From NCBI RefSeq assembly GCF_018336915.1, contig NZ_CP064927.1, forward strand, positions 44,602 to 68,601: 24,000 nt of DNA. Direction: 5' to 3'. Both the position numbers and the translations under genes were made by a program. Positions within the stretch are counted from its first letter, which is position 1. The number at the start of each line of letters is the position of its first letter. The stretch comes from Acaryochloris marina S15 (GTDB lineage: Bacteria > Cyanobacteriota > Cyanobacteriia > Thermosynechococcales > Thermosynechococcaceae). Of the stretch, positions 1,257-20,697 are shown in pieces. The notes beneath the pieces are model-generated. The model did no database searches. It had not been told where the DNA came from and saw nothing but the letters and a program-made list of their open reading frames with translations.

Positions 1257-1463
1257 GTGACTAGGAAGCGAAAGCCAGCCAAGGAAAAATTTGTGAAGCG
1301 CAATTTAAGCTTGCCGCCAGAATTTAATGATGACGTGGTTGAATACTGCGAAAGTCGGGAATATCCGGTTTCGTTTAGTGCTTTCGTCCGTCGTGCTATA
1401 GAAGAAAAGTGGGAGCGAGAAGGCCATACGCCTCAGTCACAAAGAGAAAATGAAGGTGAGTAG
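1257..1463 (+). CDS. Small ribbon-helix-helix (CopG/Arc/MetJ-like) DNA-binding protein
   Basis: 68-aa ORF with a basic N-terminus (KRKPAKEKFVKR). It continues with a beta-strand-like NLSLPPEF, helix DDVVEYCES and helix SFSAFVRRAIEEKW, the typical RHH pattern (k.v.l.Lp.e....l......g.S.s..iR.Ai). The start is uncertain: GTG 1257, or an internal GTG near 1290. Confidence 0.6.
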   Translation: MTRKRKPAKEKFVKRNLSLPPEFNDDVVEYCESREYPVSFSAFVRRAIEEKWEREGHTPQSQRENEGE

Positions 1464-2086: not shown

Positions 2087-3493
2087 ATGAATGACAAGGG
2101 TTTAGGCGTCGGTGAAGCGATAGAGCTGATCGATAACTGGCTAGTGGCTAGGAATCGTAAACAGCTCACTTCAGCAGAGAAGCTTCTGATCTCTGCTGCT
2201 TGGGAGAATCGGAAATATGAAGATGTAGCGGAAGAATCAGGTTACAACCCTGATTACCTCAAACAAGCAGGTCAAGGTTTGTGGCGAACGCTTAGTCTTG
2301 TGATTGGCAAGAAAGTGACCAAGACCCGCCTAAGAAGTATGGTTGAGGGTAAAAAGCTGGAATTAGCTCGCCATCAATTGACGAAGAAATATTCTAAAGA
2401 AATGAGGGGTGAGCTTGAGCCTCCTGAGTTTACTGTTCTGGGTCGTCGCCCCCCTACGGTTGAACAGTATTTTGGGTATAAAGCAGAGCTAGCGATGCTT
2501 CGGCAAAGTGTACTAGAACGTCAATGTGTCTTAGTAGTAGGCCAGGCAGGTATTGGCAAGAGTTCACTCTGCTCAAAGCTGTTGGAGCAATTGAAGATAT
2601 CTGCTGATAATCATTTTGAGCAAGTGGTCTGGCAGAGTATGTCTAGCCATCAGAATCTTGATAGCTTGCTGGAGGAAATATTTAGATGCTTGAAATTAAG
2701 CCCCTATGACTCATCTAAGGATCTGACGGTTCAAGTTACTGAGTTAGTTGAATTCCTCCATCGTGAAAAGATCCTGATCGTACTTGATGGTGCGGAGGAA
2801 ATACTTAAAGAGGCAACCAACAATAATCAGTACGGTAAGAACGAAAACTATGGTTGGTTCTTAGAGCAGATAAGGGAGTGTTCCCATTCCTCTTGTTTCC
2901 TGATTACCAGTAGAGAGCCCTTTAAAGATCTGGAGTTCGCCGAAACGTCGGGCCAATCGGTACGCATCATGGATATCAAAGGACTAGGACAAGATGCATA
3001 TCGTTTTCTAGAATCCCAAGGACTGATGGATACGAATGATGGATTTAGATTATTAATCCATCGCTATCGGTCAAACCCGTTTCTTCTCAAATTAGTTTCT
3101 GCTCGAATCCGTAACTATTTTGGTGGGGATGTGAACGCCTTTATTCAATGCGATTCCATCTTAATGAGTGAGTCTGTCCAGCAAGCCCTGGATACTCAAT
3201 TTAGATTAGGAATTTGGACCGCATTAGAACGAGAATTAATGCAGATCTTGGCGCATTCCGATAAAAATGGAGAGGGGATCTCTTTTCAAGAAGTATTTCA
3301 GATGCTAAAACAGCAGAAAGGCGATTTATCCATGCATGAGTTTATCGCAGCAATAGATAACTTGGTGAGTCGTTCATTGTTGGAACGCTGCCAAGAAGAT
3401 AGTGAACCCTTAATCTTGTCCCTGCAACCCGTCATTCGGAAATATCTGCTTAAAGATCCATCAGGAGTGATACAAGAATCCCTTGCTGCATAG
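2087..3493 (+). CDS. STAND-class P-loop NTPase (NB-ARC/AP-ATPase-like) with an N-terminal HTH-like domain and no C-terminal repeat array
   Basis: The N-terminal ~90 aa (LTSAEKLLISAAWENRKYEDVAEESGYNPDYLKQAGQGLWRTLSLVIGKKVTKTRLRSMVE) match the sigma-r4/LuxR-like leader I recall at the N-terminus of many cyanobacterial NB-ARC-WD40/TPR proteins. Walker A is GQAGIGKSSL and Walker B is ILIVLDGAEE. The NB-ARC-like CFLITSRE segment is followed by a helical/winged-helix-like tail. The protein ends at 468 aa without WD40, TPR or LRR repeats. Confidence 0.8.
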   Translation: MNDKGLGVGEAIELIDNWLVARNRKQLTSAEKLLISAAWENRKYEDVAEESGYNPDYLKQAGQGLWRTLSLVIGKKVTKTRLRSMVEGKKLELARHQLTKKYSKEMRGELEPPEFTVLGRRPPTVEQYFGYKAELAMLRQSVLERQCVLVVGQAGIGKSSLCSKLLEQLKISADNHFEQVVWQSMSSHQNLDSLLEEIFRCLKLSPYDSSKDLTVQVTELVEFLHREKILIVLDGAEEILKEATNNNQYGKNENYGWFLEQIRECSHSSCFLITSREPFKDLEFAETSGQSVRIMDIKGLGQDAYRFLESQGLMDTNDGFRLLIHRYRSNPFLLKLVSARIRNYFGGDVNAFIQCDSILMSESVQQALDTQFRLGIWTALERELMQILAHSDKNGEGISFQEVFQMLKQQKGDLSMHEFIAAIDNLVSRSLLERCQEDSEPLILSLQPVIRKYLLKDPSGVIQESLAA

Positions 3494-3510
3494 TTGAAAG
3501 ATGATGAAAT

Positions 3511-5274
3511 GTGACCTGCTACTGTTTCAATCCTCGCTGTCAGACTAGGGAAAACTCAGATACCGATTTGGTGTGTCCATCTTGTGGCACATCACTACTT
3601 GTAAAAAATCGATATCGACTCTTGAACCCTTTGCGTCCAATCGATGGTCCTATTCCTCAAGCAATTGAAGTTTTTGAGTGTGAGGATACAACAGGAGGTG
3701 AAGGCATTGATCCGGGAACTCACCTGATCATCAAGATACTTTTGGTCAGCGATCGGTTTGAGTCCTATGACGCCAAGCGGGTTAATCTACTGTATCGAGA
3801 ATCGAAAGCTCTCCTCAATGTTGAACACCCTGGAATCCCTATTGCTCCCAAAAATGGTTTTTTCTGTCTGAATGACACGGGTATCGCTAAGGAAGTGTAC
3901 TGCCTGGTTCAACAGAAAATTGAGGGCCAGACGCTAGAAGAGTGGCTAGACGATCAGGGTTCCATTTCAGAGAAACAAGCATTGGATTGGTTGAATCAAC
4001 TCGCAGAAACCCTTCATGCCGTTCACCAAAAGGGATATTTCCACCGAGATATCAAACCCGCAAATATCATGATTAAGCCAGATGGGAAGCTGGTGCTTAT
4101 TGACTTTGGGGCAGCAAGAGATCTTACTGATACCTTTTTAGCAAGGATTAGCTCAGCTCCTTTAGAGAGTGACTACAAACATGAGCTAGAGGTCACGAGT
4201 ATTTTTACGGCGGGCTATGCTCCACCGGAACAAATGAACGGCAAAGGATTACCCCAAAGTGACTTTTATGCTCTTGGTCGCACCTTTGTTCACCTTCTCA
4301 CGGGTGTTCATCCCAATCGATTACCTGGAGATATTTACACTGGGAAATTGACCTGGCGAGATAAGGTCCCTCAGCTCTCCAAGCCTTTCGCTGATTTCCT
4401 CGATCAGCTGATGTCGATCCCACCGGGAAAGCGGCCCCAAAACACAGCATCCCTATTACTGTATTTACAATCTTCATTACCTAAAAAACTAAAACGCAAT
4501 AGACTTTTCAATGATCGACGATTTCAGTTTGGCCTTGGCATTCTATTCTTATTGCTTCTGGCAATAGGGTTTAAGTTAGGGACACAACGCTTGTCGCGCT
4601 ACTATTTCCTATTGGCAAATGAACAGCAGAGCAAAGGGAAGTTGGCAGAAGCCAGAGGCTACTACGAGCGGGCTATCCAGTTGAATTCAACTAACAAGAC
4701 TGCCTACAACAATCTCGGAGTGGTCTGTCAGCAATTACAGGATGTGGATTGCGTCTTAGAGAGCTATTACAAAGGACTGGACGTTAAGCCTAATGATGAG
4801 GTGCTATTTTACAATCTCGGCACCATCCATGAAGATGTCCAAGACTATGCCAAGGCAAGGCAGTATTACCAAAAATCGATTGATGCGAGTCAAGGACAAT
4901 ACCTAGCCCCAGTCAACAACCTGGCGAGGTTAGACCTGCTCGATAATAAGCCCCAAGCAGCCGAAGCTCGGATTCGGCAAGTGTTAGATCAATCTGACCA
5001 TGATCGGGTGATGGCATCCCTGTATAAAAATCTGGGATGGGCACAGTACCAGCAAAAACAATACGTTCAGGCCGTTGTAAGTTTAAAGAAGAGTATGCAG
5101 TTTAACCCTGAAGAGGTTAGTACTCACTGTCTATTGGCAAAAGCTGAGAATTCTCTGGGCCAACCTTCTGCAACTAATTGGGAAATATGCCTTCTTGCCA
5201 AGTCTGACCTGCCCGAAGTATGGGAATGGAGATATCAGTATATTCAGCAGAAAGAGAAGATAGTCAAGCCCTAG
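3511..5274 (+). CDS. Ser/Thr protein kinase with 4-Cys zinc-ribbon prefix, one transmembrane segment and C-terminal TPR repeats
   Basis: GTG start 17 nt after the previous stop; an in-frame TGA sits 2 codons upstream. N-terminus is CYCFNPRC...CPSCG. Kinase motifs are intact: IIK (beta3 Lys), YRESKAL (alphaC Glu), HRDIKPANIM, DFGAA, GYAPPEQ. The hydrophobic span is FQFGLGILFLLLLAIGF. After it come TPR-like repeats (AEARGYYERAIQLNSTNKTAYNNLG, VLFYNLGTIHEDVQDYAKARQYYQKSI, LYKNLGWAQYQQKQYVQAVVSLKKSMQFNP). Confidence 0.9.
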   Translation: MTCYCFNPRCQTRENSDTDLVCPSCGTSLLVKNRYRLLNPLRPIDGPIPQAIEVFECEDTTGGEGIDPGTHLIIKILLVSDRFESYDAKRVNLLYRESKALLNVEHPGIPIAPKNGFFCLNDTGIAKEVYCLVQQKIEGQTLEEWLDDQGSISEKQALDWLNQLAETLHAVHQKGYFHRDIKPANIMIKPDGKLVLIDFGAARDLTDTFLARISSAPLESDYKHELEVTSIFTAGYAPPEQMNGKGLPQSDFYALGRTFVHLLTGVHPNRLPGDIYTGKLTWRDKVPQLSKPFADFLDQLMSIPPGKRPQNTASLLLYLQSSLPKKLKRNRLFNDRRFQFGLGILFLLLLAIGFKLGTQRLSRYYFLLANEQQSKGKLAEARGYYERAIQLNSTNKTAYNNLGVVCQQLQDVDCVLESYYKGLDVKPNDEVLFYNLGTIHEDVQDYAKARQYYQKSIDASQGQYLAPVNNLARLDLLDNKPQAAEARIRQVLDQSDHDRVMASLYKNLGWAQYQQKQYVQAVVSLKKSMQFNPEEVSTHCLLAKAENSLGQPSATNWEICLLAKSDLPEVWEWRYQYIQQKEKIVKP

Positions 5275-5313
5275 GCTTGCATTTATCTCTCGCAACTAGA
5301 TAACTTATATCTA

Positions 5314-6228
5314 ATGCATAAACTACTTTTACGACCCTCTCTGCTTTTGCCTTTAATAGCTGTAAGCTCATCCCTTCCGCTTACAGCAAGGTCCAAGCCC
5401 TCTCAATCAGCCCGCTGTAAGCCAACCATCGCTCGAATGGTAACAGAGGGAGATAGAAACTTCCGTCGTGGGACATTACTATGTCCCCAAGATCTTGTAG
5501 CTCCAGCTCCAGGCAAGCGGCCTAGGCTATTCTGTCATAAGAGCGGAGCAGTGTTGGTGGGCCGGACTGGGCGAGTGGCCGAACTCTGTGCTGCTGACGC
5601 CAATAATTCGGCTCTTCGTGGGGGAAATGAGGGTAGCCTCAGCGTCAACACGAGGGGGAATGAGGATGAACTTAAACTCCTTGCCCCGTTTGGTCCAACT
5701 ATTATCCAACAACGCCCTGATCTAACCTGGAAGCCGATTGGAGAAGCAACTCACTATGTGATCAGTATTGAGGGCTACCACCTGAAGCTAAAGCAAACTG
5801 TATCAGAGACTCGTTTGCAATATCCTTCAAGCTGGCCAGCCCTGGAATTTGGCAGCGCTTATGAGATTGAAATTCTGGTCTATCAAGGCAAGCAGCCCAT
5901 TAGCGTGGGTCGGGCGACTATAAATCTCGTGATTGAGACAGATGCCGTTGCCATTCAAGAACAGGCTGCTGCGATTAAACGACTCCCTGTTCCTCTCAGT
6001 GAAGTTGCAGTAGAGCTAGACACTCTATACATGACTCGAAATTTATTTCATGAGTCCATTCAATTCTTAGAAAGTCTGAGAAAAAAAGGAAAAAGCAACC
6101 TCAAACTCAATCAGTTACTGGCAAAGCGATATTTCCAAGTGGATCATCCCGAGCTGGCAGAGGCGATCATAGAAGAAGCTCAATTGCCAACGAGAATAAA
6201 GTTGCCCCAGAAAAAAGGATGGGAATAG
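5314..6228 (+). CDS. Secreted DUF928-like protein
   Basis: N-terminal signal-like segment LLLRPSLLLPLIAVSSSLPL. The core LLAPFGPTIIQQRPDLTWKPIGEATHYVISIEG...LQYPSSWPALEFGSAYEIEILV matches my memory of the DUF928 pattern (L.P....T....PtF.W......y.f.l......l.....~Le.g..Y.w.v). So does the tail LDTLYMTRNLFHESIQFLESLRKKG...NQLLAKRY. The gene lies 39 nt after the kinase stop. Confidence 0.65.
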   Translation: MHKLLLRPSLLLPLIAVSSSLPLTARSKPSQSARCKPTIARMVTEGDRNFRRGTLLCPQDLVAPAPGKRPRLFCHKSGAVLVGRTGRVAELCAADANNSALRGGNEGSLSVNTRGNEDELKLLAPFGPTIIQQRPDLTWKPIGEATHYVISIEGYHLKLKQTVSETRLQYPSSWPALEFGSAYEIEILVYQGKQPISVGRATINLVIETDAVAIQEQAAAIKRLPVPLSEVAVELDTLYMTRNLFHESIQFLESLRKKGKSNLKLNQLLAKRYFQVDHPELAEAIIEEAQLPTRIKLPQKKGWE

Positions 6229-8627
6229 TCCTCAGATCGAATGAGCTTGAGTTGGGCTTGCTGTAATGCTTTAGCTTTGGACGAATTATCTTTGAGTTCC
6301 TGATAGAAGGCTGAAATGAGTTCTGTTGTTGCACTTGAATCGGCTAGCCATAGAGAGGCTAGCGTATTTCTAGAGCCTGCTTGTGTGGCTATTCCGGCTA
6401 AACCGAGAGCAGACTTCTTATCGCCCTTAGCCGTCTGACATGCGCTGAGGATCAGCAATTCCAAAGAGGCATGACCATTATGACGCTTCCTGTTGAGCAT
6501 ATTGTGGAATTCCAGGGCATTGATGGGCTGGTTGTAGGCCAGCAGCATTGTTTTTGAGAGATCTGAGCTAAATAAACCGTGAGTGGCGATGTGAACGACC
6601 TCTGTATCCTGACGTAGAGCGGTTTCTAGTCGATCTGTTGTGAACTCATGATTGAGTAATGAAGACTCTAAATTAGAGGCTTTGGCGACACCCTCAAGTT
6701 CAGCCTCCACTTCAGGCAAAGGATTGAGGTTGCTAGGGACGTTGGGCTGATTAAAGCTGGGGGCTGAATTCGAGAGTCCAGCAAACAGGACATTCATCTG
6801 ACTCAGATCTTTGGTCTGAGCTTGTCTGAGCTGAACGCTTAGAGCGGTCTGCACAGGGTATTTTTCAATCAGATAGGTTTGCCCATCATGTAAAAGCCCC
6901 ATCGGTAGATTTTGGAAGTGGCTATCTAGATGAAAGATGAGTGAACCTGATGTCGGTAGATATTGCTTGATGGGGCCTAAGATTTGCTGGTATAGTGCCT
7001 GGGAGCTTTTCTTGATTCGTGATTCAGAAATTAGATAGGTGTTGTCATTGTCCAGCATAACGACGAGATTAAATACCTCCTCCATCACGATCTCTGAATC
7101 GGGTTGATGGCGATATAGCCCCTCTGAGTTTTGGACAATGATGTCAACTTTGTCCTCTAATTGGAAAATGTGAATTCGGGTGGCCGAGTCAGATTGCTGT
7201 GGTTTATTCACATTGGTGACATTGAGCCTGCCACATTTTAGATAATTTTCTAGTTCAGCCACTTGCAGTTGTTGATGAGTGGAAAGAACCAGCTCAAGAT
7301 CAGGAGATGGCGAGGCTAATAAGAGTTGTAGGTATTCTGTATAGACAGGCTCCACACTTTCTTGATAGCTAAATTGAAGGTCAGACGTTGCCGAGATGAG
7401 CTTAGTTCTTACCTGCTCCAAATGTTGGATGCTGGTGTCATAGGCGGTCAGTGCTTGAGATCGGTTTCCCTGCTGCTGGTGGATCTGGGCGATGTGCCAT
7501 GACCATTGATACGCTAGGCTATCGTCTGTATTAGCCTGGGCTAGATTGAGCGCTTGTTTAAAGACTTGCATCGCATCCTCTTGCTGCTTTGATTGCAGAT
7601 AGAGTCTGCCGAGGGTGCCATAGGCTTGAGATTTCAGCCTGGGATCATTTAGGGTATTGGCTTTCAACAGGGCAGATTTAGCATGGTTGAATGCCTCAGC
7701 TAACAAAGAATTACTGATTTTAGAGGTGATCGGTTTTTGGTCTACCTCACTCAAGAGTTGGCTTAGTTTGAGCTGTAGGTTGATAGCCTCGGCTTCAGGA
7801 AATTGGCTGAAGTCATTAGAGATTAGATTTTTGATGAGAGGGTGGATGAGAGTTTGGGAGTCTTTGCGCAATTGAACGACGTCAAAAGCGTCCGAATCAT
7901 CGAGGCTAAGAATGAGCTGGAGGCTATTCAGTTGAGCATGGATGCGATGAGTTGGGCTGGACGCCAGGTTGCCATAAAGCTTGATTGCTGATTGAGCATG
8001 TAGTTTGGCATCAAGACCCAACTGGGCTTCAGTAAGAGTATCTCTCGTTAAAGTGCGTTGACTGATAGCTCGCTTATATTGAGCGTGATAGGTATTTGCC
8101 AGACTCAATCGGATATCACGATTGGAAGGCTTCAAGCTAGAAGCATGTTGGAGGATAATCTGTGATGATTCTAGTCGTCCCAGGATTTGCAGGTTATTCC
8201 CCAGGTTGTGAAGTGCGGCCAACTGTTGAGTGGTATCTAACTTGTTATTGATCTCTATCTCTAATAGGCTCTGGTTAAGTTGTCTTCCAGATTGACTCTG
8301 GCAGTATTCATAATCAAGAGTAAGGACTTTGGTCAGAGTGGTGCAAGCGCGATAGTATTGCCCCATCTTTTTCAGAGCAACGCTTTTGTTGATGGATGCC
8401 CTGTAAAAGCCGGGTGGGTGACTGGCTTTCTTGTAAATAGAATGTGCGTTATTAAAGAGCTTTAAAGCTGTTTGGGGCTTGTTTCTCTTCAGAGATTCTA
8501 AGCCCTGCTGGATCAGCATATCCCCTTGCTGAATCTGGGATTGAGATGCGAAAGCTGGAGCAGTAAAAGTCTGACTACAGACTAGACAGAAAAGGCTAAA
8601 AAGTTGATAGGAAGGGATTTTTTTCAT
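6180..8627 (-). CDS. Secreted TPR-repeat CHAT-domain (caspase-fold) protease
   Basis: Signal peptide MKKIPSYQLFSLFCLVCSQTFTAPAFA|SQ. The N-terminal half is TPR-like (ALKLFNNAHSIYKK..., AMQVFKQALNLAQ, ALTAYDTSIQHLEQ). The C-terminal CHAT domain has a catalytic-type His (VVHIATHG) and Cys (LLILSACQTA), and the typical end HPFFWGNFILVGN. The start is 6 nt downstream of the TPS gene stop. Confidence 0.9.
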   Translation of the reverse strand: MKKIPSYQLFSLFCLVCSQTFTAPAFASQSQIQQGDMLIQQGLESLKRNKPQTALKLFNNAHSIYKKASHPPGFYRASINKSVALKKMGQYYRACTTLTKVLTLDYEYCQSQSGRQLNQSLLEIEINNKLDTTQQLAALHNLGNNLQILGRLESSQIILQHASSLKPSNRDIRLSLANTYHAQYKRAISQRTLTRDTLTEAQLGLDAKLHAQSAIKLYGNLASSPTHRIHAQLNSLQLILSLDDSDAFDVVQLRKDSQTLIHPLIKNLISNDFSQFPEAEAINLQLKLSQLLSEVDQKPITSKISNSLLAEAFNHAKSALLKANTLNDPRLKSQAYGTLGRLYLQSKQQEDAMQVFKQALNLAQANTDDSLAYQWSWHIAQIHQQQGNRSQALTAYDTSIQHLEQVRTKLISATSDLQFSYQESVEPVYTEYLQLLLASPSPDLELVLSTHQQLQVAELENYLKCGRLNVTNVNKPQQSDSATRIHIFQLEDKVDIIVQNSEGLYRHQPDSEIVMEEVFNLVVMLDNDNTYLISESRIKKSSQALYQQILGPIKQYLPTSGSLIFHLDSHFQNLPMGLLHDGQTYLIEKYPVQTALSVQLRQAQTKDLSQMNVLFAGLSNSAPSFNQPNVPSNLNPLPEVEAELEGVAKASNLESSLLNHEFTTDRLETALRQDTEVVHIATHGLFSSDLSKTMLLAYNQPINALEFHNMLNRKRHNGHASLELLILSACQTAKGDKKSALGLAGIATQAGSRNTLASLWLADSSATTELISAFYQELKDNSSKAKALQQAQLKLIRSEDYSHPFFWGNFILVGN

Positions 8628-8633
8628 CTTTCC

Positions 8634-11051
8634 TTATGACTTCTTACACATTGAGGGATCTGATGAGGTGTGTGTAGATTGAGTCTTAGTTTTTGTGATC
8701 AGGACTGTTTTGCCATTATCTTTAGTCCATCCAGTTGCTTCCACTATTGGGTTCTCTATTGGCGGTGGGGCAGTCTGCGATTTGAATGCTAATTGGAAGG
8801 TAGGAATACCCAGTATCGAATCTGTTTCTGCAAAATGACTGGGTTCTACTTGCAAAGCACCTGGCCCCATAGCAACGAATTTACTGTCTCCAGTGGAGGG
8901 GTTGCAGTCTGAGATGAGTTGAGGTGGACGCTCAACATCTGGTTTAGGTGCAGTTGTCTCTTCAGCTCCGGTTTCTTCGACATCAAGGTTGATATTGCCA
9001 TCTAACTGAAGTCCGGCGTCCGAAGATACGCTGAATTCCACCTTGGGGCCAAATATAGCTGCTTGGGCTGTGATTGAAATATTTCCCCCTTGACCTTTCT
9101 CTGCCTCCGCAGTAAAACTGCTTTCTCCTATAGCTACAACTAAATCAGAGATGGCTGTGATATTTCCTCCCGTGCCTTTTTGGGTGGCTGATGCTGTAAT
9201 TGAGCTGTCTTTGAGTAAGATGAAGTCAGCAAAAATAAAGACATTACCACCCTCACCACCAAAAGTTGCTGCACTAATGAGACTATTGTCCTCAAGGGCA
9301 ATAATGTTTGCAGAAATCTTCAGCTCTCCAGCATCGCCAGTGCCTTCATTACGGGCAGATAACTGCCCCCCATACTTGAGAAGTAGCCGGGGAGTATTGA
9401 TGGTGACACTTCCAGAATCTCCACTGGGAAGTGGGGGAAGTTTAAGAAGCTGTCGAAGTACCGGATCTACTTGAATGGCGTTAGCGGCAATTGAGCTAGG
9501 TAGACCCATTCCAGAACTACCACGAATTTCAATATATTCATGGGCATTTATTTCCAATTTGCCACTATTCCCTGAACTTGAAATCGAAACATTAACTTCT
9601 CCGCTGTCTTCTAGGATTAACTTAGAGGTATTAATCACTAAATTCCCGGAACTTCCTGATCCAAGACTTGCAGATGATAGGTTACTTGGTTGCATAAATA
9701 TAGGCTCAAATCCGGTCACCTCGACTAAATCAGCAAAAACCGAAACCTTACCACCATCCCCTCTGCCAAAAGTAGCAGAAGATAAACGTCCGCCTTGACT
9801 AATTGATAGTTGAGAAGTAGAGATATTGATATCTCCAGCCTTACCCGAACCGAAAGTAATAGTATTAATAACACTGACTCCTAAAGGATTGATTGGTGAG
9901 GTCCCTTCAAGATCCAGGTATTTGGAGGCTTTAATCGATATTTTTCCTCCATCAGTTGAGGAAAAAGTTCGAGAGGATAATCTACTCCCATCGCGTACTA
10001 CTATGGCGGGAGAAATTAGGGTGATTGGAGCGCCAGAGCCTGAATTAGTCGATTCAGAATATAGTCCTGAAGCCAATATTTCAGGCAATGAGGCATCGCC
10101 GATATCTATTAATTCTGTTGCGACTACTTTTAGTTCCTTGTCTGCGACTACTCCTTGGTTGTTCATCAAAGCCGCTGAACCCTTTAGGAACTGAATATTT
10201 CGCCCATGTACACCGATTAATGCACCACCTTGTCCAGTCGTTTCAAGTAGTGATCGGTTTGTTAAAGTGATTTCCCCAGTAGACCCTCGATCATAGATGA
10301 AAGACCTTTGGGTGTTAGAGGTGTCAAATTTCACCTGACTTTGTTTAACACTCCCTATCTCAATTCGACCTCCAGGGGCACGGATAATACCACCATCTAA
10401 AAAAACATCTCCACCTACCAAGGCAAGAGTTTTACCTGGCAACACTTGCAAGCCTCTGGGGTTATCCTTTCCCGATACAGGAAAAAATAGGTTAGCAGAA
10501 AGTTGATGTCCACTATTAGTAACGCGAATATTCCCAGGATTACTACCTAACTGAATACCTACGGGTGTTGCTACCGTCAGTAGGGGAGGAGATTGAGGGG
10601 ATAAAGCGCTGAATTGCATTCCATCAACAAATTCAATGCTATTTGCAGTAGTTCCTAGAAAAGAGCCACCGATATCTAGTTGAGCGTTCGTGCCAAATAC
10701 AATCCCATTAGGATTTAAGAGAAACAAGTTAGCAGTACTATTGGCCTTAAGGATACCGTCAATACTCGATATCGACTTGCCCGTAACACGACTAAAAATG
10801 TTTTGGATATTGGCAGCATTTTTAAAATAAGCTGTTCCACCTGTTGGCACAGAAAAATTTTGGAAGCTATGGAAAAGATTTCTTCCTCTCACAGAACCAT
10901 CCTCAATAAGGAATATATTTCCTTGATTAGTGACGCGAGAATTAACAGAGCGATCTGGAACAATTTGCCCTTGAGCAGATGTTGTCCCTAGTAGACTTAG
11001 CAAAATTACTGCTATAGCTGTTTTTTGCAGTGAAAACTCTAGGATTTTCAT
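8634..11051 (-). CDS. Two-partner-secretion (TPS / haemagglutination-activity) domain exoprotein with beta-helix repeats
   Basis: Signal peptide MKILEFSLQKTAIAVILLSLLGTTSAQG. TPS-domain motifs are GRNLFHSFQNFSV, IFSRVTGKSISSIDG and LFLLNPNGIVFG. A long Gly/Ser/Asn-rich repetitive beta-helix-type region follows. ATG 11051 is preferred over the track's TTG 11066; either is possible. Confidence 0.9.
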   Translation of the reverse strand: MKILEFSLQKTAIAVILLSLLGTTSAQGQIVPDRSVNSRVTNQGNIFLIEDGSVRGRNLFHSFQNFSVPTGGTAYFKNAANIQNIFSRVTGKSISSIDGILKANSTANLFLLNPNGIVFGTNAQLDIGGSFLGTTANSIEFVDGMQFSALSPQSPPLLTVATPVGIQLGSNPGNIRVTNSGHQLSANLFFPVSGKDNPRGLQVLPGKTLALVGGDVFLDGGIIRAPGGRIEIGSVKQSQVKFDTSNTQRSFIYDRGSTGEITLTNRSLLETTGQGGALIGVHGRNIQFLKGSAALMNNQGVVADKELKVVATELIDIGDASLPEILASGLYSESTNSGSGAPITLISPAIVVRDGSRLSSRTFSSTDGGKISIKASKYLDLEGTSPINPLGVSVINTITFGSGKAGDINISTSQLSISQGGRLSSATFGRGDGGKVSVFADLVEVTGFEPIFMQPSNLSSASLGSGSSGNLVINTSKLILEDSGEVNVSISSSGNSGKLEINAHEYIEIRGSSGMGLPSSIAANAIQVDPVLRQLLKLPPLPSGDSGSVTINTPRLLLKYGGQLSARNEGTGDAGELKISANIIALEDNSLISAATFGGEGGNVFIFADFILLKDSSITASATQKGTGGNITAISDLVVAIGESSFTAEAEKGQGGNISITAQAAIFGPKVEFSVSSDAGLQLDGNINLDVEETGAEETTAPKPDVERPPQLISDCNPSTGDSKFVAMGPGALQVEPSHFAETDSILGIPTFQLAFKSQTAPPPIENPIVEATGWTKDNGKTVLITKTKTQSTHTSSDPSMCKKS

Positions 11052-11089
11052 TATTTCAGAACTCAAGTATGTATTCTCTAGTTCAATTT

Positions 11090-12556
11090 TTAGATAGCGA
11101 ATGATGAGGGGAATTCACGACGATGAAGAATCTCATTAAAATCTTCCCATTCTTTTTGTTCCCAGGGAGTGGATTTCATCGTTGCTGCTTGAACTTTTTC
11201 CATGAAAGGTCTGCGAACTTTCTCATACTTGTTAAATGCATCGGCGATCTTATTTTTATTGTCTAAGCTATTTTCTTGAATCAGCTTAGTAATTTCGGTA
11301 GCAATAAATGCAGCATCTTCTAGTCCTTGATTCGCGCCTTGAGCTATGAAAGGAGGCATTGCATGAGCAGCATCCCCTAGTAAAACTATACGCCCGTGAC
11401 TCCAAGCAATTTGAGAATCAACCGGGGTAGTCACTGGATGAATGTAATATAGGCGATGAATTATTTTTTCAGGATTCGATAAACGTAACAGCTTTGTGCA
11501 AATTGAAGGAAAATCACCATTTTTCAATGCCTTTACTCCTAGTTCAATAAGCTCAGATGGTGATTTATCTTTCCAAGAATCCAAGTCTATAGAAGCATGG
11601 AGTAAATATCCAATAGTGTTATCTGGTCTTCGCATCAAGACCAGACGTAATTGCTCTAAATCTTGGGAATCTAACTTGATAGAATTATTATGAAGGGTTA
11701 CAAATGGATCTCCTTGAAAGCATTTAGCCTTCAGTTCTTCAATCATTGAAATCGGTATATTATTTATTCCAAAACAACCAATAGCAGCAACACCGGAATA
11801 TTGAGGTTGTGCCCATTGCCTTAAATCTGTTTTGGAATAAAGCAATTGTCGAATTGTTGAATTAACACCATCTGCTGCAATCACTAATTTGGCATATAAC
11901 GATTTTTGGTGGTCAGATTCTTGATTGGCTTGAGTCGAGTCGGAAGGATTTACATTGGATGGCATCATTTCCCAATGAGCAAATGGATTACGTGAGGTTG
12001 ATGCATCTGAAATCGTATTGACTTGCACCCATCCATCTTCTTCCTCAACATGAACGCAACGATGGTTTGCTTGAACAATATCTGGAGGGAGCAAATTTCT
12101 CAATGTTGTTTGTAAGTCAAACCAAGATAAAGAAACTCGTCCCTCTCCATAGCGCTCAAACCAACTTTCAAAATCCGTAGGAATCGAAAGAGTAATTTCA
12201 CCTTGTAAGTTTTTTTGAATCCATTTTCCTTTCTTAGCTGCTGGCTTCTCTTTTTTAACCTCGTTTGGGCTACTTGAAGACTTCTTTTCAACTGGAAGCT
12301 GATGTGCTTTTGAAGCTGTCTCCTTGATTTTCTCGTAGGCTTCTGAATCGGTATACTTAATTGCTTTTAATCCATTGGGTAATAGATCAACAACTTGCCC
12401 AACTTTACGAAATTCACTGGCTTGATCGATGACGAGGATATTTGTGATGCCTCTCTTTCGTAAGCCAATCGCTGTTGCCAAGCCCACTGGACCTGCACCT
12501 ACAATCAAGACATCATAAATTTTCTGTGGAGAACCTGAACCACTGATATCAGTCAT
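11090..12556 (-). CDS. FAD-dependent (class A flavoprotein) monooxygenase
   Basis: Rossmann dinucleotide motif YDVLIVGAGPVGLATAIGLRKRG, DG motif AADGVNSTIR, and C-terminal FAD motif GRIVLLGDAAHAMPPFIAQGANQGLEDA. The Lys/Ser-rich insert VEKKSSSSPNEVKKEKPAAKKGKW is unusual. The gene ends 23-38 nt upstream of the TPS gene on the same strand. Confidence 0.9.
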   Translation of the reverse strand: MTDISGSGSPQKIYDVLIVGAGPVGLATAIGLRKRGITNILVIDQASEFRKVGQVVDLLPNGLKAIKYTDSEAYEKIKETASKAHQLPVEKKSSSSPNEVKKEKPAAKKGKWIQKNLQGEITLSIPTDFESWFERYGEGRVSLSWFDLQTTLRNLLPPDIVQANHRCVHVEEEDGWVQVNTISDASTSRNPFAHWEMMPSNVNPSDSTQANQESDHQKSLYAKLVIAADGVNSTIRQLLYSKTDLRQWAQPQYSGVAAIGCFGINNIPISMIEELKAKCFQGDPFVTLHNNSIKLDSQDLEQLRLVLMRRPDNTIGYLLHASIDLDSWKDKSPSELIELGVKALKNGDFPSICTKLLRLSNPEKIIHRLYYIHPVTTPVDSQIAWSHGRIVLLGDAAHAMPPFIAQGANQGLEDAAFIATEITKLIQENSLDNKNKIADAFNKYEKVRRPFMEKVQAATMKSTPWEQKEWEDFNEILHRREFPSSFAI

Positions 12557-12598: not shown

Positions 12599-13096
12599 AT
12601 GGAACCAGAAATAAGCAGCTATTCCCCTGCAACCTCATGTACCGAACGATACCACTTTTCGGAGACGACTTTGCGATCTCAACATTCCCTCAAACTGACC
12701 ATCAGCCTCACTCCCGAACACCTTGGGTTTCTCGCTTACACATTCCCCAACGAAGATCCTGAAGATGCCCTGATCAAACTCCTCGATAGCGCACGAAACC
12801 GAGCCATTCGCAGAGCAGAACAGCAAGTGAGAGTCCTACATCCAGGCCAAGAAGGAAGCAAAGACCAATCCGTGAGCCTAGTTGATGATGTGGTGGAGAA
12901 TCCGATCGGTGAGTTACAGGAGTTATGCCAGCATCAGCAAATCTCAATGCCCAGGTACGAGTTCGAGGAAATTTCGGAGGGGTTTCGTTGTATGGCACAG
13001 GCGATGGGATTACGGGGAGTTGGCGAGGGTACATCGAAGAAAGAGGCGAAAGCGGAGGCTGCGAAGAGACTGCTTGGCAAAGCTGCTCCAAATTAA
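12599..13096 (+). CDS. Small protein with a C-terminal double-stranded-RNA-binding motif (dsRBD) and an RHH-like N-terminal segment
   Basis: The C-terminus ENPIGELQELCQHQQISMPRYEFEEISEGFRCMAQAMGLRGVGEGTSKKEAKAEAAKRLLGKA follows the dsRBD pattern (P...L.E.c.....P.Y......F.......g....G.G.SKKeAk..AA..LL). The N-terminal LKLTISLTPEHLGFLAYTF...EDALIKLLDSARNRAIRR looks strand-helix-helix. AGGGGA lies upstream of the ATG. Confidence 0.6.
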   Translation: MEPEISSYSPATSCTERYHFSETTLRSQHSLKLTISLTPEHLGFLAYTFPNEDPEDALIKLLDSARNRAIRRAEQQVRVLHPGQEGSKDQSVSLVDDVVENPIGELQELCQHQQISMPRYEFEEISEGFRCMAQAMGLRGVGEGTSKKEAKAEAAKRLLGKAAPN

Positions 13097-15087: not shown

Positions 15088-16272
15088 GGCAACTGATTTC
15101 GGGTTTTAATCCAGTTGATCTGACAAATCGGCTGTTTAACCTAACATGAATAACAAAGAAAGAAGAAACAGGCAATTGCATCACCTCACTTTGAGAATTC
15201 ACCCCATAATTCCGTTTTCTATGCATGAAAAACTGGATCTCAGTTACAGAGACCTCTAGAATTTATAGATTTCATATTGAGCTTACCCTTGGCAAAAATG
15301 CCGAAGATTGATCATCGTGTATGCCAAGCTTTTCAGGGCATAGTGCAACTTACTGATCCACTCGAATCGCAGTAGCAAGCGCTTGAATTTATCCTCCCAG
15401 GCAAAGACTCGCTCAATGGTATTGAATCTTTCTTGGAAGATGGATGAATCGAACAGCCTTTTTGGACCTGGCTTTGGCGTCTTTCTCCCCCGAAGATTTT
15501 CATTGATATTTGGCACCATCCTTCGATTGAAAATGGCCTTGCGATTCTCACGACTATCGTACACGCCATCCAAGCTGACGACAGTCCCAATCAAGTCTAT
15601 ACCTATGGTTCGGGCTGTACTCATTACTTGCGTCAGTGCCGTTTTGAATAGAGGTGACTCGTTCCGGTTACCAGGAGCAGTGATAAAGGGAGAGATCACA
15701 TTGCAATTGCGATCACAAAAGGCAACCACTTTGTCACCCTTCATGTGCTTGTGTCCACTGAATCCCAGATTGTCGCCCCCTTTCTTGGCTGCAGTGGTTG
15801 TCCCATCTCCATGAATAATGCTGGCATCCAACTTTCCTTTTTCATTAAGCATTGAGACTGACGCCTTGAAAATGTCTTCAAAACACCCATGGGTTTCATA
15901 GCGTCGAAAGGCTCGATAAACACTGGAGTGGTTAATTTCCGGTCGCCCATTTTTGTCCTTTTCAATGGGTAGCTCACTCCACTGACATCCCAAGTGCAGC
16001 AACTTCAAAATGTAGTTGAAGATGGCATGCAAAGAGAGCTTTGGTTGAGGTCCCCGAGTGCCGATGTGCAAATGGGGTAAGACAAATGTCTCAAACTGCT
16101 CAAGGGTTAAGAATGTTGGAATCCATTTATAGGGCTTAGTTTGAGGCATCTGCACTCCTAACGAACGGTAAACTAAATGACTGGCGTCATTTTAGTCTGC
16201 AACGATAGAAGGCTATGCAGGGAAGGGTTTTAGGTGATCTGAACCATGGAGTAAAACCCGAAATGAGTTGCC
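15088..16272 (-). mobile_element. IS5-family insertion sequence (~1185 bp) with ~25-bp terminal inverted repeats
   Basis: Left end 15088-15112 is ggcaactgatttcgggttttaatcc. The reverse complement of the right end 16248-16272 is ggcaactcatttcgggttttactcc (23/25 identical), with weaker similarity continuing ~10 bp inward. It encloses the transposase ORF. I found no clean target-site duplication. Confidence 0.85.
15283..16155 (-). CDS. IS5-family DDE transposase
   Basis: 290 aa. The N-terminal part is DUF4096-like (LTLEQFETFVLPHL...PKLSLHAIFNYILKLLHLGCQWSELP...SSVYRAFRRYETHGCFEDIF). DDE-type motifs are IIHGDGTT, VSLDGVYDS and NTIERVFAWEDKFKRLLLRFE. Confidence 0.9.
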   Translation of the reverse strand: MQMPQTKPYKWIPTFLTLEQFETFVLPHLHIGTRGPQPKLSLHAIFNYILKLLHLGCQWSELPIEKDKNGRPEINHSSVYRAFRRYETHGCFEDIFKASVSMLNEKGKLDASIIHGDGTTTAAKKGGDNLGFSGHKHMKGDKVVAFCDRNCNVISPFITAPGNRNESPLFKTALTQVMSTARTIGIDLIGTVVSLDGVYDSRENRKAIFNRRMVPNINENLRGRKTPKPGPKRLFDSSIFQERFNTIERVFAWEDKFKRLLLRFEWISKLHYALKSLAYTMINLRHFCQG

Positions 16273-16373
16273 AAATGCCAAGGAACCAGTGTAATTTTTC
16301 CTAAAAAGAGAGAATAGCACGGTAGAGCTAGACTTGAGTACAGTCATTCTTTTTTCTAAGGAAATTGCGGGAT

Positions 16374-17684
16374 ATGTCACTTAGGAGATTCTCTAAAGGA
16401 ATAGTGGTGTTAGTCGTTCTGACAACGGGGCTATGCAACTCAGTGGGGAGAAAGGATGCAGTTGTGCTGGCAAGTCCAGCTAGTGAGGATTCTACACATC
16501 TAGCACAATCAGAGCAGCCCCAAGTGGATGGAGGCTATGCAGAAGCCCTGCGTCAAATTCGAGTGGCGAAAGAGACACAAGCAACTGAACTAGATTTGGC
16601 GTTCCTATCACTGACTCAACTGCCACCAGAAATCGGACAGCTTACCAATCTGCAATGGCTATCCCTCTCGAGCAACCAACTGACCCAACTGCCACCAGAA
16701 ATCGGACAGCTTACCAAGCTGCAATGGCTAACCTTCTCGGGTAACCAACTGACCCAACTGCCACCAGAAATCGGACAGCTTACCAAGCTGCAATGGCTAT
16801 CCCTCTCGAGCAACCAACTGACCCAACTGCCACCAGAAATCGGACAGCTTACCAAGCTGCAATGGCTAGGACTTTGGAAAAATAAACTGACCCAACTGCC
16901 ACCAGAAATCGGACAGCTTGCCAATCTGCAATGGCTAGGACTCTGGAAAAATAAACTGACCCAACTGCCACCAGAAGTCATACAGCTTACCAATCTGCAA
17001 TGGCTAGGACTCTCGGAAAATAAACTGACCCAACTGCCACCAGAAATCGTAAAGCTTGCCAATCTGCAAAGGCTAGAACTCTCGGAAAATAAATTGACCC
17101 AACTGCCACCAGAAATCGTAAAGCTTGCCAATCTGCAATGGCTAGGACTCTCGGAAAATAAACTGACCCAACTGCCACCAGAAATCGGACAGCTTACCAA
17201 TCTGAAAGAGCTATACCTCGAGAAAAATAAACTGACCCAACTACCACCAGAAGTCGTACAGCTTACCAATCTGCAAACGCTATCCCTCTCGAGCAACCAA
17301 CTGACCCAACTGCCACCAGAAATCGTAAAGCTTACCAATCTGCAAACGCTATTCCTCTCGTACAACCAACTGACCCAACTACCACCAGAAATCGGACAGC
17401 TTACCAATCTGCAATGGCTATCCCTCCAGTTCAATCAACTGACCCAACTGCCACCAGAAATCGTAAAGCTTACCAATCTGCTATCGCTAGAACTCTCGGG
17501 CAACAAACTGACCCAACTGCCACTAGAAATCGTAAAGCTTACCAATCTGCAAACGCTATTCCTCTCGAAAAATAAACTGAGTAGCCTGCCAATAGAGATA
17601 GAAAAGCTGCGTCGATCAACAAAGATAATTGTGGAGGGCAACCCATTACCCCCTGACGTTCTTGAACAATATAAACCGCGTTGA
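16374..17684 (+). CDS. Secreted leucine-rich-repeat (LRR) protein, 15 x 23-residue repeats
   Basis: N-terminal hydrophobic signal-like segment GIVVLVVLTTGLC. A cap AEALRQIRVAKETQATELDLAFLSLTQLPPEIGQL follows, then repeats LTQLPPEIGQLTNLQWLSLSSNQ. ATG 16374 (AAGGA ~12 nt upstream) is preferred over the track's TTG 16365. Confidence 0.9.
   Translation: MSLRRFSKGIVVLVVLTTGLCNSVGRKDAVVLASPASEDSTHLAQSEQPQVDGGYAEALRQIRVAKETQATELDLAFLSLTQLPPEIGQLTNLQWLSLSSNQLTQLPPEIGQLTKLQWLTFSGNQLTQLPPEIGQLTKLQWLSLSSNQLTQLPPEIGQLTKLQWLGLWKNKLTQLPPEIGQLANLQWLGLWKNKLTQLPPEVIQLTNLQWLGLSENKLTQLPPEIVKLANLQRLELSENKLTQLPPEIVKLANLQWLGLSENKLTQLPPEIGQLTNLKELYLEKNKLTQLPPEVVQLTNLQTLSLSSNQLTQLPPEIVKLTNLQTLFLSYNQLTQLPPEIGQLTNLQWLSLQFNQLTQLPPEIVKLTNLLSLELSGNKLTQLPLEIVKLTNLQTLFLSKNKLSSLPIEIEKLRRSTKIIVEGNPLPPDVLEQYKPR
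16611..17645 (+). repeat. Tandem 69-bp coding repeat array (14 near-identical units plus 1 degenerate unit)
   Basis: The unit ctgacccaactgccaccagaaatcggacagcttaccaatctgcaatggctatccctctcgagcaaccaa recurs head-to-tail with a 69-bp period from 16611. Unit 15 (17577-17645) is degenerate. Variation clusters at a few codons (IGQ/IVK/VVQ; WLSLSSNQ/WLGLWKNK/WLGLSENK). Confidence 0.95.
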
Positions 17685-18355: not shown

Positions 18356-19186
18356 ATGGGGCCTGTTGAAAAAGCACTCTGGTTTATTGAAAGCCACTTC
18401 AATAAAAAACTAACATTATCGGCTATTGCAAACGCAAGTGATGTCTCTCGCTATCACTTGACACGAGTGTTTGGTATCGCAACGGGATATTCCGTAATGC
18501 GGTATGTCCGTAGTCGACGTTTGACTGAAGCCGCCCGTGCGCTCGCTGTTGGTGCTCCTGATATTCTTGCTGTAGCACTCGATGCGGGCTACAGCTCTCA
18601 TGAAGCTTTTACGCGGGCCTTCTGTGCTCAATTCGGTATCATGCCCAAGCAAGTTCGCGCAAAGCGTCATCTCGACTCAATTCAGATGGTGGAGCCTATT
18701 GTAATGAATGAAAATCTGATTGTTAAGCTCGAATCCCCGTACATTACATATGCTGATACTTTCCTCATCGCTGGACTAAGGGATCGTTATACATTTGAAA
18801 CTAATCACGGCATTCCTCTGCTGTGGCAATGCTTTGGACCCTATATAGGACATATCCCAGGGCAGGTTGGAACAGTGACCTATGGAGTATGTTGCAATAG
18901 TGATGGTGCAGGAAACTTTGACTATATTGCCAGTGTAGAAGTTTCCTACTTAGCAGACCTTCCTGATGACTTCAACTACGTACAAATTCCTGCACACAAA
19001 TACGCTGTGTTTTCTCACCGAAATCATATTTCTACCATTCGTAATACTGTTTATACCATTTGGAATCAATGGTTACCCCAATCAATATACAATCCATCCG
19101 AAGCACCGGAGTTCGAGCGCTATGATGAGCGTTTCGATCCTCAACTAGGAACAGGTGTGGTAGAGATTTGGGTACCCATAAATTAA
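18356..19186 (+). CDS. AraC-family transcriptional regulator with C-terminal GyrI-like effector-binding domain
   Basis: AraC HTH region: LTLSAIANASDVSRYHLTRVFGIATGYSVMRYVRSRRLTEAARAL...ILAVALDAGYSSHEAFTRAFCAQFGIMPKQVR. GyrI-like pattern in the C-terminal half: YGVCCN...FDYIASVEV...VQIPAHKYAVFSH...IWNQWLPQS...PEFERYDERFDP..GTGVVEIWVPI. Confidence 0.85.
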   Translation: MGPVEKALWFIESHFNKKLTLSAIANASDVSRYHLTRVFGIATGYSVMRYVRSRRLTEAARALAVGAPDILAVALDAGYSSHEAFTRAFCAQFGIMPKQVRAKRHLDSIQMVEPIVMNENLIVKLESPYITYADTFLIAGLRDRYTFETNHGIPLLWQCFGPYIGHIPGQVGTVTYGVCCNSDGAGNFDYIASVEVSYLADLPDDFNYVQIPAHKYAVFSHRNHISTIRNTVYTIWNQWLPQSIYNPSEAPEFERYDERFDPQLGTGVVEIWVPIN

Positions 19187-20587: not shown

Positions 20588-20697
20588 AAATAACAAGTAT
20601 TGCGATCAGGTACTCCATACCAGTATGAGAAAAAAATATCCTGGGAGTCGGACCAAATCTTGGTAGTCTCCCGGTCCACACTTATCTTGATCTATTG

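Follow-up and report, generated by a model that had tools for sequence, protein, structure and literature searches.

Organization of the locus

We analyzed a 24,000-nucleotide stretch of the cyanobacterium Acaryochloris marina S15 (positions 44,602 to 68,601 of contig NZ_CP064927.1; hereafter the window), whose proteins correspond to A. marina QUY46163-QUY46176, encoded on a 210,325-bp replicon. The window contains a convergent cluster encoding an HTH-STAND NTPase (HTH, helix-turn-helix), a membrane Ser/Thr kinase with TPRs, a small protein that we call P3, a TPR-CHAT protease, an exoprotein with a two-partner-secretion (TPS) domain, and a flavin adenine dinucleotide (FAD)-dependent monooxygenase. 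The first five of these genes very probably form one functional unit, for which we tentatively propose a role in signalling or recognition between envelope and cytoplasm. An earlier note on this DNA had described a six-gene cassette here; a check of the open reading frames (ORFs) found all six, and the ORFs, their spacings, and the 49-bp convergent overlap were all reproduced from the coordinates, as follows.

2087-3493, + strand: HTH-STAND NTPase, cytoplasmic, 468 residues (Pfam and orthologue alignment)
3511-5274, + strand: membrane Ser/Thr kinase-TPR, 587 residues (Pfam, NCBIfam, and transmembrane scan)
5314-6228, + strand: P3, predicted to be secreted, 304 residues (profile-profile comparison, AlphaFold2 (AF2) model, and orthologues)
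6180-8627, - strand: TPR-CHAT protease, predicted to be secreted, 815 residues (Pfam and conserved dyad)
8634-11066, - strand: TPS-domain (TpsA-like) exoprotein, 810 residues (Pfam and NCBIfam), with an alternative ATG start at 11051
11090-12556, - strand: FAD-dependent monooxygenase, 488 residues (Pfam), an accessory gene upstream of TPS
6180-6228, both strands: 49-bp convergent overlap of the 3' ends of the P3 and CHAT genes (ORF coordinates)

On the + strand, the STAND and kinase genes are separated by 17 nt and the kinase and P3 genes by 39 nt. On the - strand, the TPS and CHAT genes are 6 nt apart, and the gap between the FAD monooxygenase and TPS genes is 23-38 nt, depending on whether TPS starts at the TTG at 11066 or the ATG at 11051. 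Pfam and NCBIfam profile searches supported five of the six family assignments made earlier; the assignment of P3 to DUF928 was the one that they did not support.

Conservation of a five-gene set

We fetched 80 loci from species-representative genomes by way of a CHAT alignment and compared them by tblastn with the six proteins of the window and by all-against-all ORF clustering. Loci of the window type (clade A, L001-L026) encode CHAT proteins at least 34% identical to that of the window, and a sister clade (clade B) comprises 61 loci with CHAT proteins that are 30-33% identical. Every clade-A locus with enough flanking sequence carried the STAND, kinase, P3, and TPS genes, and these loci came from Acaryochloris, many Nostocales, and Leptolyngbya, as well as from metagenome-assembled genomes of Synechococcales, Chroococcales, and Thermosynechococcaceae. 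In the sister clade, only L040 had the STAND/kinase/P3 trio, at a distance of 2 kb, and only L084 had STAND alone. Thus, the adjacency of the STAND and kinase genes to the exported set, a chance origin of which had been chosen beforehand as the refutation test, is not accidental.

The same five genes were present on annotated plasmids of Acaryochloris, Nostoc PCC 7120, N. punctiforme, Nodularia, Fischerella, and L. boryana. Close P3 homologues were few, and their contigs all carried STAND-kinase-P3 converging on CHAT-TPS, with differing flanks. A reciprocal search of PLSDB with STAND returned the same loci, with STAND and P3 2-5 kb apart in the plasmids listed in both searches, and the two best Acaryochloris STAND matches that we opened (pMB08 and pREB6) were full modules. 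The set withstood inversion of STAND (in about half of the Nostoc loci), inversion of CHAT (L011), insertion of ShlB between TPS and CHAT, and insertions of integrases or insertion sequences (IS); save for IS/integrase insertions, the STAND and kinase genes were direct neighbours in the annotated plasmids and clade-A loci that we examined. Across loci, the pairwise identities of CHAT, kinase, and P3 co-varied (Spearman 0.78-0.84), and TPS identity correlated weakly with that of the other genes (Spearman 0.35-0.5).

The FAD monooxygenase (FAD_binding_3, 3e-23) was rejected as a core member, as tblastn found orthologues outside the window only in L001 and pMB04. The cassette described earlier thus stands as six ORFs, with a core of five genes and a monooxygenase confined to a sublineage. 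In pREB2 and MBIC10699, a cytochrome P450 gene occupied the same co-directional position, 3 nt from TPS, and elsewhere the gene beside TPS encoded a P450 (several Nostoc), a different FAD oxidoreductase (pNPUN02), or a VOC protein (PCC 7120). P450 genes were present in 6/26 window-type loci versus 0/61 sister-clade loci. The position beside TPS therefore looks like a recurrent yet variable 'oxygenase slot' (11090-12556 in the window, 19697-21019 in L089, 20105-21481 in L092, and 16980-17483 in L088).

The 61 sister loci carried DUF928 (37 loci), a membrane CHAT-CHASE2 protein (36), TPS (42), ShlB, a TpsB (10), and DUF1822 (12). The 'orphan' CHAT/TPS/DUF928 trio that the earlier note ascribed to cyanobacteria therefore exists, and it is the sister CHAT clade that carries it. 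CHAT-CHASE2, in which the CHAT domain is N-terminal to a CHASE2 sensor domain, is annotated as a membrane protein. We regard the window locus as a variant of this widespread, uncharacterised cyanobacterial TPS/(ShlB)/TPR-CHAT/DUF928/CHAT-CHASE2 envelope cluster, in which CHAT-CHASE2 has given way to the kinase-TPR and HTH-STAND proteins, with the exported set otherwise homologous. This swap of one transmembrane transducer for another is the strongest comparative argument that the logic of the cluster is signalling across the membrane.

The STAND NTPase and the membrane kinase

The STAND protein matched NB-ARC (3e-12), NACHT (2e-10), and nSTAND1 in Pfam. Its 'HTH-like head', as it was first described, proved to be a recognised domain, with a precomputed match to PF26355 (HTH_VMAP-M9) on an identical copy of the protein. 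The order of domains is an N-terminal HTH of the HTH_VMAP-M9 type, an NB-ARC nucleotide-binding oligomerization domain (NOD), then an ARC/winged-helix tail. The Walker A (GQAGIGKS) and Walker B (ILIVLDG) motifs are present, and in the orthologue alignment G152, G155, G157, K158, and D234 were invariant and the GxGKS, hhhhD, and YR(G/S)NP motifs were kept. The protein thus has the Walker A and B motifs, the ARC/GxP motif, and the winged helix after the P-loop domain that mark STAND NTPases, and the PDB matches of its profile were NB-ARC proteins and plant NLRs. We found no match to C-terminal sensor repeats of the TPR, WD40, or LRR type; the protein ends after the winged helix, as do 14 orthologues. 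In agreement with the cytoplasmic placement first proposed, the protein carries no signal, and a hydrophobicity scan detected no transmembrane (TM) segment in it.

The kinase matched Pkinase (1e-25) and TPR_1 (2e-22) in Pfam, and its N-terminal 4-Cys prefix corresponds to NF045510 in NCBIfam. The prefix is followed by a Hanks domain predicted to be cytoplasmic, a TM segment, and about 230 residues of TPRs predicted to be periplasmic. The catalytic residues are intact: K75, E97, H178-R-D180, N185, D198-F-G, and E240 of the APE motif were invariant in 16/16 orthologues, as were the four N-terminal cysteines. The single TM segment (residues 338-356, Kyte-Doolittle score 2.11) kept its position in the same 16 orthologues, which fits the topology of one span with non-cytoplasmic TPRs suggested before.

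The placement of the TPR domain argues that the kinase reads something outside the cytoplasm, and it bears on an alternative in which control runs from the inside out. In this alternative, a cue from the cytoplasm or the membrane would lead the kinase and HTH-STAND proteins, as dedicated regulators, to set expression or secretion of TPS, CHAT, and P3, and the exported proteins would be an output (adhesin, biofilm, or surface remodelling) rather than a sensor. The linkage of the five genes speaks for inside-out control exactly as it does for signalling inward, an HTH-STAND protein is a natural transcriptional output device, and TPS loci of other bacteria are typically under dedicated regulators, as in the case of BvgAS and FhaB. 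We nevertheless consider inside-out control rather unlikely, as a large TPR domain is predicted to be non-cytoplasmic in 16/16 kinase orthologues and the sister component that was replaced, CHAT-CHASE2, has an extracytoplasmic sensor domain.

The predicted exported proteins

The CHAT protein, of the caspase-haemoglobinase fold, matched PF12770 (4.4e-52) in addition to TPRs. H683 and C730 were invariant in an alignment of 15 homologous sequences, so that the His/Cys dyad is intact, as had been reported, and protease activity is predicted. The protein begins with the leader MKKIPSYQLFSLFCLVCSQTFTAPAFA. N-terminal hydrophobic segments were present in 16/16 P3 orthologues, 14/16 CHAT orthologues (scores above threshold), and 11/16 TPS orthologues, in line with the signal peptides first noted; these calls rest on hydrophobicity, AXA-like sites, and conserved cysteines, not on a dedicated signal-peptide predictor. 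A topology with an extracytoplasmic branch, a TM kinase, and a cytoplasmic STAND protein, as the earlier note had it, fits the predicted leaders and TM segments.

The TPS protein matched PF05860 (3.4e-63) and TIGR01901 (2.5e-25) and contains the motif LLNPNGIVFG. Its TPS domain is conserved, its beta-helix shaft is variable, and its Cys-bracketed C-terminal domain is again conserved, with a CNP...GPG...EAxGW...C pattern in the last 130 residues common to proteins from Acaryochloris through Nostoc. Scans of the 24-kb window found no ORF for TpsB (ShlB/POTRA_2). Because the homologous modules of pREB6, pMB08, pNPUN02, Nodularia, Fischerella, and L014 carry ShlB, the TPS protein of the window is presumably exported by a transporter in trans. 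Cyanobacterial relatives also include TPS-CHAT fusions of about 940-1020 residues (P0057 and P0083-P0085), in which two-partner secretion would carry the caspase-like protease itself as its passenger; these fusion proteins tie the two exported proteins to each other. We infer that CHAT might cleave the TPS C-terminal domain and P3.

P3 had been labelled a DUF928 protein. It gave no match to Pfam DUF928 (PF06051) at E<=10 and none in NCBIfam, whereas a genuine DUF928 protein from a sister locus scored 1.4e-58 against PF06051; direct membership was therefore rejected, and the label can refer to remote homology at best. An hhalign comparison of the P3 family with DUF928 gave a probability of 70% and an E value of 4e-5 over 147 columns across the DUF928 domain, compared to E values of 0.4-0.7 for unrelated controls, and P3 sits in the genomic slot beside the CHAT gene that DUF928 fills in the sister clade. 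An exhaustive hidden Markov model (HMM) search identified 4419 P3 relatives, 114 of them at E<=1e-30, most of which have 280-370 residues, a leader, and about six cysteines; among 85 relatives, PF06051 matched 8 (best 7e-6), fn3 matched 3, and TPR_12 matched 29. A second, word-indexed profile search added only a Coleofasciculus subgroup, and it was the exhaustive HMM search that made the family visible.

The AF2 model of P3 (pLDDT 68.6, and about 77-89 per 10-residue block over residues 131-290) contains a beta-sandwich followed by a helical repeat domain, and the best PDB match of P3 was the C-terminal domain of MtxA (4z29, E 5e-7), with FN3 domains next. P3 can be divided into a leader, a Cys-rich N-domain, an FN3/Ig-like sandwich (about 125-205), and TPR-like helices (208-289). 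These features suggest a secreted FN3-plus-TPR-like adaptor that lies outside Pfam DUF928 and is at best remotely DUF928-like. The middle beta-sandwich of P3 is repeated 10-32 times in giant proteins of 2000-6800 residues (for example, P0123, P0130, and P0180) and is therefore a widespread extracellular repeat unit.

The NCBI annotation of P3 (QUY46165.1) starts at Met42, giving a protein of 263 residues that lacks the leader and the conserved Cys35. Because the region upstream of Met42, including the near-invariant Cys35, is conserved in the alignment of homologues, the 304-residue start is preferable. The cysteines of the P3 orthologues are kept, as is typical of exported proteins. The tail of P3 encoded in the 49-bp overlap, QLPTRIKLPQKKGWE, is antisense to the CHAT C-terminus. 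P3 and CHAT genes overlapped by 26-59 bp in 15/26 fetched clade-A loci and by 34-43 bp in the 13 loci with a P3 tail motif, which occurred only where there was an overlap. We considered this motif, QLPT(R/K)xKxxQ or, in another form, Q(L/P)PTxxKxxQ, as a TPR-binding peptide or sorting signal and rejected both; it arises where the conserved CHAT C-terminus W(G/A)xF(I/V)LVG is read in antisense and is thus a by-product of overprinting rather than an independent motif.

Linkage to plasmid replication genes and mosaic divergence

CyRepA1, which combines DUF3854 with DEXDc, is a Rep protein of cyanobacterial plasmids (PMC10079941). A CyRepA1 gene was present within the fetched locus in 18/26 clade-A loci versus 1/61 clade-B loci. 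At the left end of the window lies the 5' part of a plasmid sigma-70 gene, encoding the N-terminus of the protein (1-526, - strand; translation and Pfam Sigma70_r3), and leftward of it, outside the window, a CyRepA1-family gene is seen at positions 1-429 of the identical contig L091; its N-terminus is 66% identical to that of pREB2 CyRepA1. The order CyRepA1-sigma70-STAND is shared with pREB2, pMB04, and pMB08, and the order CyRepA1-(sigma-70)-STAND-kinase-P3 converging on CHAT-(ShlB)-TPS recurs on the annotated plasmids pREB2, 'Moss Beach' pMB04 and pMB08, PCC 7120 alpha, pNPUN02, and Nodularia pUHCC0039a. When three PLSDB searches were combined, CyRepA1 and P3 were 4.5-7.6 kb apart in 31/34 plasmids listed for both. 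A megablast search of PLSDB with the locus found no near-identical plasmid.

In some strains (for example, Nostoc sp. C052, C057, ATCC 53789, and UHCC 0302, and A. marina MBIC11017), several plasmids each have a copy of the module, and in several strains each of three to five plasmids has one. The copy on PCC 7120 alpha (L088, 243-255 kb) has a kinase gene split by a TnpB-type IS, a 4-Cys prefix annotated as a separate 50-residue coding sequence, and a second TnpB between STAND and CyRepA1, and it may be non-functional. CyRepA1 was not adjacent to the module in Fischerella, L. boryana, or pREB6, where the set was still kept; the neighbours of the module in pREB6 are two ParB genes. Conversely, PLSDB contained 132 records with CyRepA1 versus 50 with P3, and the module, being absent from many of the smaller CyRepA1 plasmids, does not belong to the replication machinery.

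The five genes diverge at very different rates from the adjacent Rep gene. Median identities across ten Nostocales loci were 82% for CyRepA1, 55% for CHAT, 55% for the kinase, 47% for P3, 41% for TPS, and 40% for STAND. Identity also changed in blocks: between L012 and L026 it was 96% for the kinase, 95% for P3, and 95% for STAND, versus 59% for CHAT and 35% for TPS; between L006 and L008 it was 92% for CHAT and 84% for P3, versus 51% for TPS and 40% for STAND; and between L006 and L010, which come from one strain, it was 95% for Rep versus 38% for TPS. These jumps indicate cassette-like recombination and apparently fast divergence beside a conserved Rep. Fast mosaic divergence characterises recognition or conflict loci more than it does housekeeping signalling, which hints that the signal handled by the module is more likely a recognition or conflict cue. 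The earlier reading had included neither the CyRepA1 linkage nor the mosaic divergence, and both alter the likely biology.

Linkage to the replication region raises the alternative that a TPS/CHAT/P3 surface locus and a STAND/kinase pair are unrelated units, inherited together only by virtue of their place in the plasmid backbone beside rep. The backbone linkage of the whole region and the weak correlation of TPS identity with that of the other genes are what such an account would predict. It is nonetheless highly unlikely: across cyanobacterial orders, the genes stay associated at protein identities of 25-40% and with differing flanks, and they do so where CyRepA1 is not adjacent and despite internal rearrangements; in the sister CHAT clade, both CyRepA1 and the STAND/kinase pair are missing.

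The same linkage would also suit a plasmid competition or maintenance device by which a plasmid's carriage is enforced or signalled to others through exclusion, through policing of plasmid-free or differently equipped neighbours, or by coupling expression or copy number to envelope contact. Such a role is compatible with the signalling mechanism proposed below. It is favoured by the fixed position beside CyRepA1 (or ParB in pREB6), by the separate copies on several plasmids of one strain, and by module genes that diverge far more than Rep even within a strain. We regard it as unlikely, however, as a toxin/immunity pair was not recognisable (no search was aimed at a toxin domain or immunity gene), the TPS C-terminus is conserved rather than polymorphic, many CyRepA1 plasmids lack the module, and the rep linkage could simply reflect a recombination-cold region of the backbone. 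A related idea, equally improbable in our judgement, is plasmid self/non-self recognition, with the module as a fast-diversifying 'identity' cassette for each large CyRepA1 plasmid. The TPS filament, protease, and adaptor would then report contact or envelope status through the TPR-kinase to a plasmid-specific HTH-STAND protein that controls the sigma factor, Rep, or the module itself, and plasmids that share a cell or compete could detect, and react to, one another or nearby cells.

A proposed mode of action

We tentatively favour a plasmid-borne module for envelope-to-cytoplasm signalling or recognition in which the kinase acts on the HTH-STAND protein, a reading to which we give slightly less than an even chance. 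The mechanism is assembled from domains, topology, and gene linkage. In outline, the TpsA-like filament would be exported by a TpsB in trans and would display its variable shaft at the cell surface. The periplasmic TPR-CHAT protease and P3 would act on or with this filament, plausibly on its conserved C-terminal domain, and the periplasmic TPRs of the kinase would read the resulting extracytoplasmic state. The kinase would then phosphorylate the sensor-less HTH-STAND protein, by analogy with AfsK acting on AfsR, and the STAND protein would switch transcription in an NTP-dependent manner, its plausible targets being the module itself or plasmid genes nearby (sigma-70 and CyRepA1). Taken separately, signalling across the membrane from kinase to STAND, for which the analogy with AfsK and AfsR is the guide, is about as probable as its opposite, and the proposal that CHAT proteolysis is the event sensed is rather unlikely to hold.

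Several points weigh against this mode of action. Genomics does not fix the direction in which information flows. The STAND protein lacks a sensor repeat, and its HTH is known from a profile match. The signal peptides were called from general features of the N-termini instead of by a dedicated predictor, and the absence of TpsB from this locus means that surface export is presumed to occur in trans. The homology between P3 and DUF928 is moderate, many small CyRepA1 plasmids lack the module, and percent identities compared across protein families do not amount to a formal test of diversifying selection.

Other features of the window

The intergenic region between the sigma-70 and STAND genes contains two direct repeats of about 50 nt (554-604 and 648-697, 94 nt apart), each holding a hairpin, GGCTCTCT...AGAGAGCC, followed by a run of imperfect iteron-like repeats at about 1080-1200 (TAATATAGTAGGTATCGATGCGTAACGCTAGCGCGTG and variants) and a palindrome at 1205-1240. 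These repeats and the palindrome are possible plasmid origin, partition, or regulator-binding sites. A 56-residue ORF at 1293-1463 (+), also called on contig L091, has a pattern resembling ribbon-helix-helix proteins, an identity that we rejected because it was without Pfam support. An Rfam scan of the window gave no match, and scans for promoter and terminator consensus sequences gave counts that were not above shuffled expectation.

To the right of the cluster, the gene at 12599-13096 (+), divergent from that of the FAD monooxygenase, specifies a 165-residue protein whose sequence includes a double-stranded-RNA-binding motif (dsrm, 2e-7). Mobile elements abound in the right half of the window, with IS4/IS5-family and Mutator-family transposases (15283-16155 and 19227-20540, both on the - strand). 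An FGE-sulfatase-like gene appears to be interrupted by about 1.4 kb of DNA with a 369-residue ORF of unassigned family, which leaves it in two parts (20695-21144 and 22580-23149, +). Genes for a leucine-rich-repeat (LRR) protein (16365-17684, +; LRR_8, 3e-78), an AraC/GyrI-like regulator (18356-19186, +), and a pentapeptide-repeat protein (23318-23944, +) are also present; none of these three is kept beside the module in other loci.

Comparison with known systems

Many defence systems contain STAND NTPases and CHAT proteases (Kaur et al., 2020; PMC7159879), and an anti-phage or abortive-infection role, with STAND as invader sensor and CHAT as death effector, would be in keeping with this, with a kinase that matches the PADLOC PD-T4-6 Ser/Thr-kinase models at 1e-90, and with a plasmid-borne location rich in mobile elements. 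We judge this role to be very unlikely. CHAT carries a predicted secretion leader and would therefore not be in the cytoplasm with STAND, and STAND lacks sensor repeats. Assignment to a known defence system was rejected, as the kinase matched generic Ser/Thr-kinase models (PD-T4-6, mad6, and MkoA) and the other five proteins had no PADLOC match. The STAND/CHAT conflict systems that Kaur et al. described in multicellular bacteria share HTH_VMAP-M9, NB-ARC STAND, TPR, and CHAT domains and an enrichment in cyanobacteria with the window locus; they are, however, cytoplasmic and built with vWA-MoxR or effector-associated domains, whereas here CHAT is predicted to be exported and is coupled to TPS. 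Pfam scans of the ORFs in the window detected neither vWA nor MoxR domains, so that HTH_VMAP-M9 is the only domain shared with the ternary VMAP systems, and the terms 'TPS', 'two-partner', 'hemagglutinin', and 'DUF928' do not occur in that paper.

For the steps from kinase to STAND, the closest characterised analogue is the AfsK/AfsR pair of Streptomyces, in which a Ser/Thr kinase encoded nearby phosphorylates an HTH-NOD STAND regulator and thereby changes how this regulator hydrolyses ATP, oligomerises, and binds DNA (PMC10936776). Both systems place a Hanks-type kinase gene near a gene for a protein with an N-terminal HTH and an NB-ARC-type NOD, here 17 nt apart. The HTH differs, being of the VMAP-M9 type in the window protein, which had no SARP or Trans_reg_C match in Pfam or NCBIfam, and of the SARP type in AfsR. 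Moreover, the STAND protein of the window lacks TPRs, which reside on the kinase and are predicted to lie outside the membrane, and the pair is embedded in a secretion and protease cluster on plasmids. The relationship is one of analogy rather than membership.

Bordetella FhaB/FhaC is a two-partner secretion system with proteolytic maturation by SphB1, CtpA, and DegP. Like FhaB, the TPS protein is a TpsA with a TPS domain and a beta-helix, and its C-terminal domain could likewise stay periplasmic and be processed by a protease. In contrast to FhaB/FhaC, the protease here has a caspase fold (CHAT) rather than being of the subtilisin or PDZ type, and the TpsB gene is absent from the locus. By the usual features of type Vb secretion, the window encodes a TpsA with the NPNG motif and lacks a cognate TpsB. 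The locus also resembles CdiBAI of contact-dependent inhibition (CDI) in having a TPS-domain filament with a variable region, an association with mobile elements, and fast divergence. It differs in that the shaft is the variable part and the C-terminal domain is conserved across orders, on which grounds CDI-like toxin delivery was rejected (no search was aimed at a toxin domain or immunity gene). In addition, no CdiB is encoded in the window, and the gene downstream of TPS encodes the 815-residue CHAT protein, whereas CDI loci have a polymorphic C-terminal toxin behind a conserved junction and then an immunity gene.

Full-text literature searches, which included the discussion of gene neighbourhoods in the CyRepA papers, returned no description of the module or of the sister cluster, in accord with the earlier statement that no characterised system has this composition. 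Sub-blocks of the locus each have a known analogue; the assembly, the exported CHAT protein, and the linkage to the replicon appear to be undescribed. If our reading is correct, the module would provide the first extracytoplasmic caspase-fold (CHAT) protease coupled to two-partner secretion, the first eukaryote-like kinase feeding a sensor-less STAND transcription switch across a membrane, and the first case of a conserved function other than replication that is firmly tied to the replication region of large plasmids in cyanobacteria. It may further be relevant to the coexistence, within a single cell, of several large plasmids whose Rep proteins are nearly identical, and it is present in genetically tractable models, on plasmid alpha of Nostoc sp. 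PCC 7120 and on pNPUN02 of N. punctiforme.

The sister cluster, TPS-(ShlB)-TPR-CHAT-DUF928-CHAT-CHASE2-(DUF1822), shares with the window locus a homologous secreted TPR-CHAT protein (30-33% identity), TPS, sometimes ShlB, and a small secreted protein encoded next to the CHAT gene. It has CHAT-CHASE2 and DUF928 where the window type has a TM kinase-TPR with HTH-STAND and P3, and it is linked to CyRepA1 in 1/61 loci, compared to 18/26 for the window type. The window locus therefore offers a comparative handle on the larger orphan CHAT/TPS/DUF928/CHASE2 cluster family, and the exchange of CHAT-CHASE2 for a kinase and a STAND protein points to transmembrane signalling as the logic common to both.

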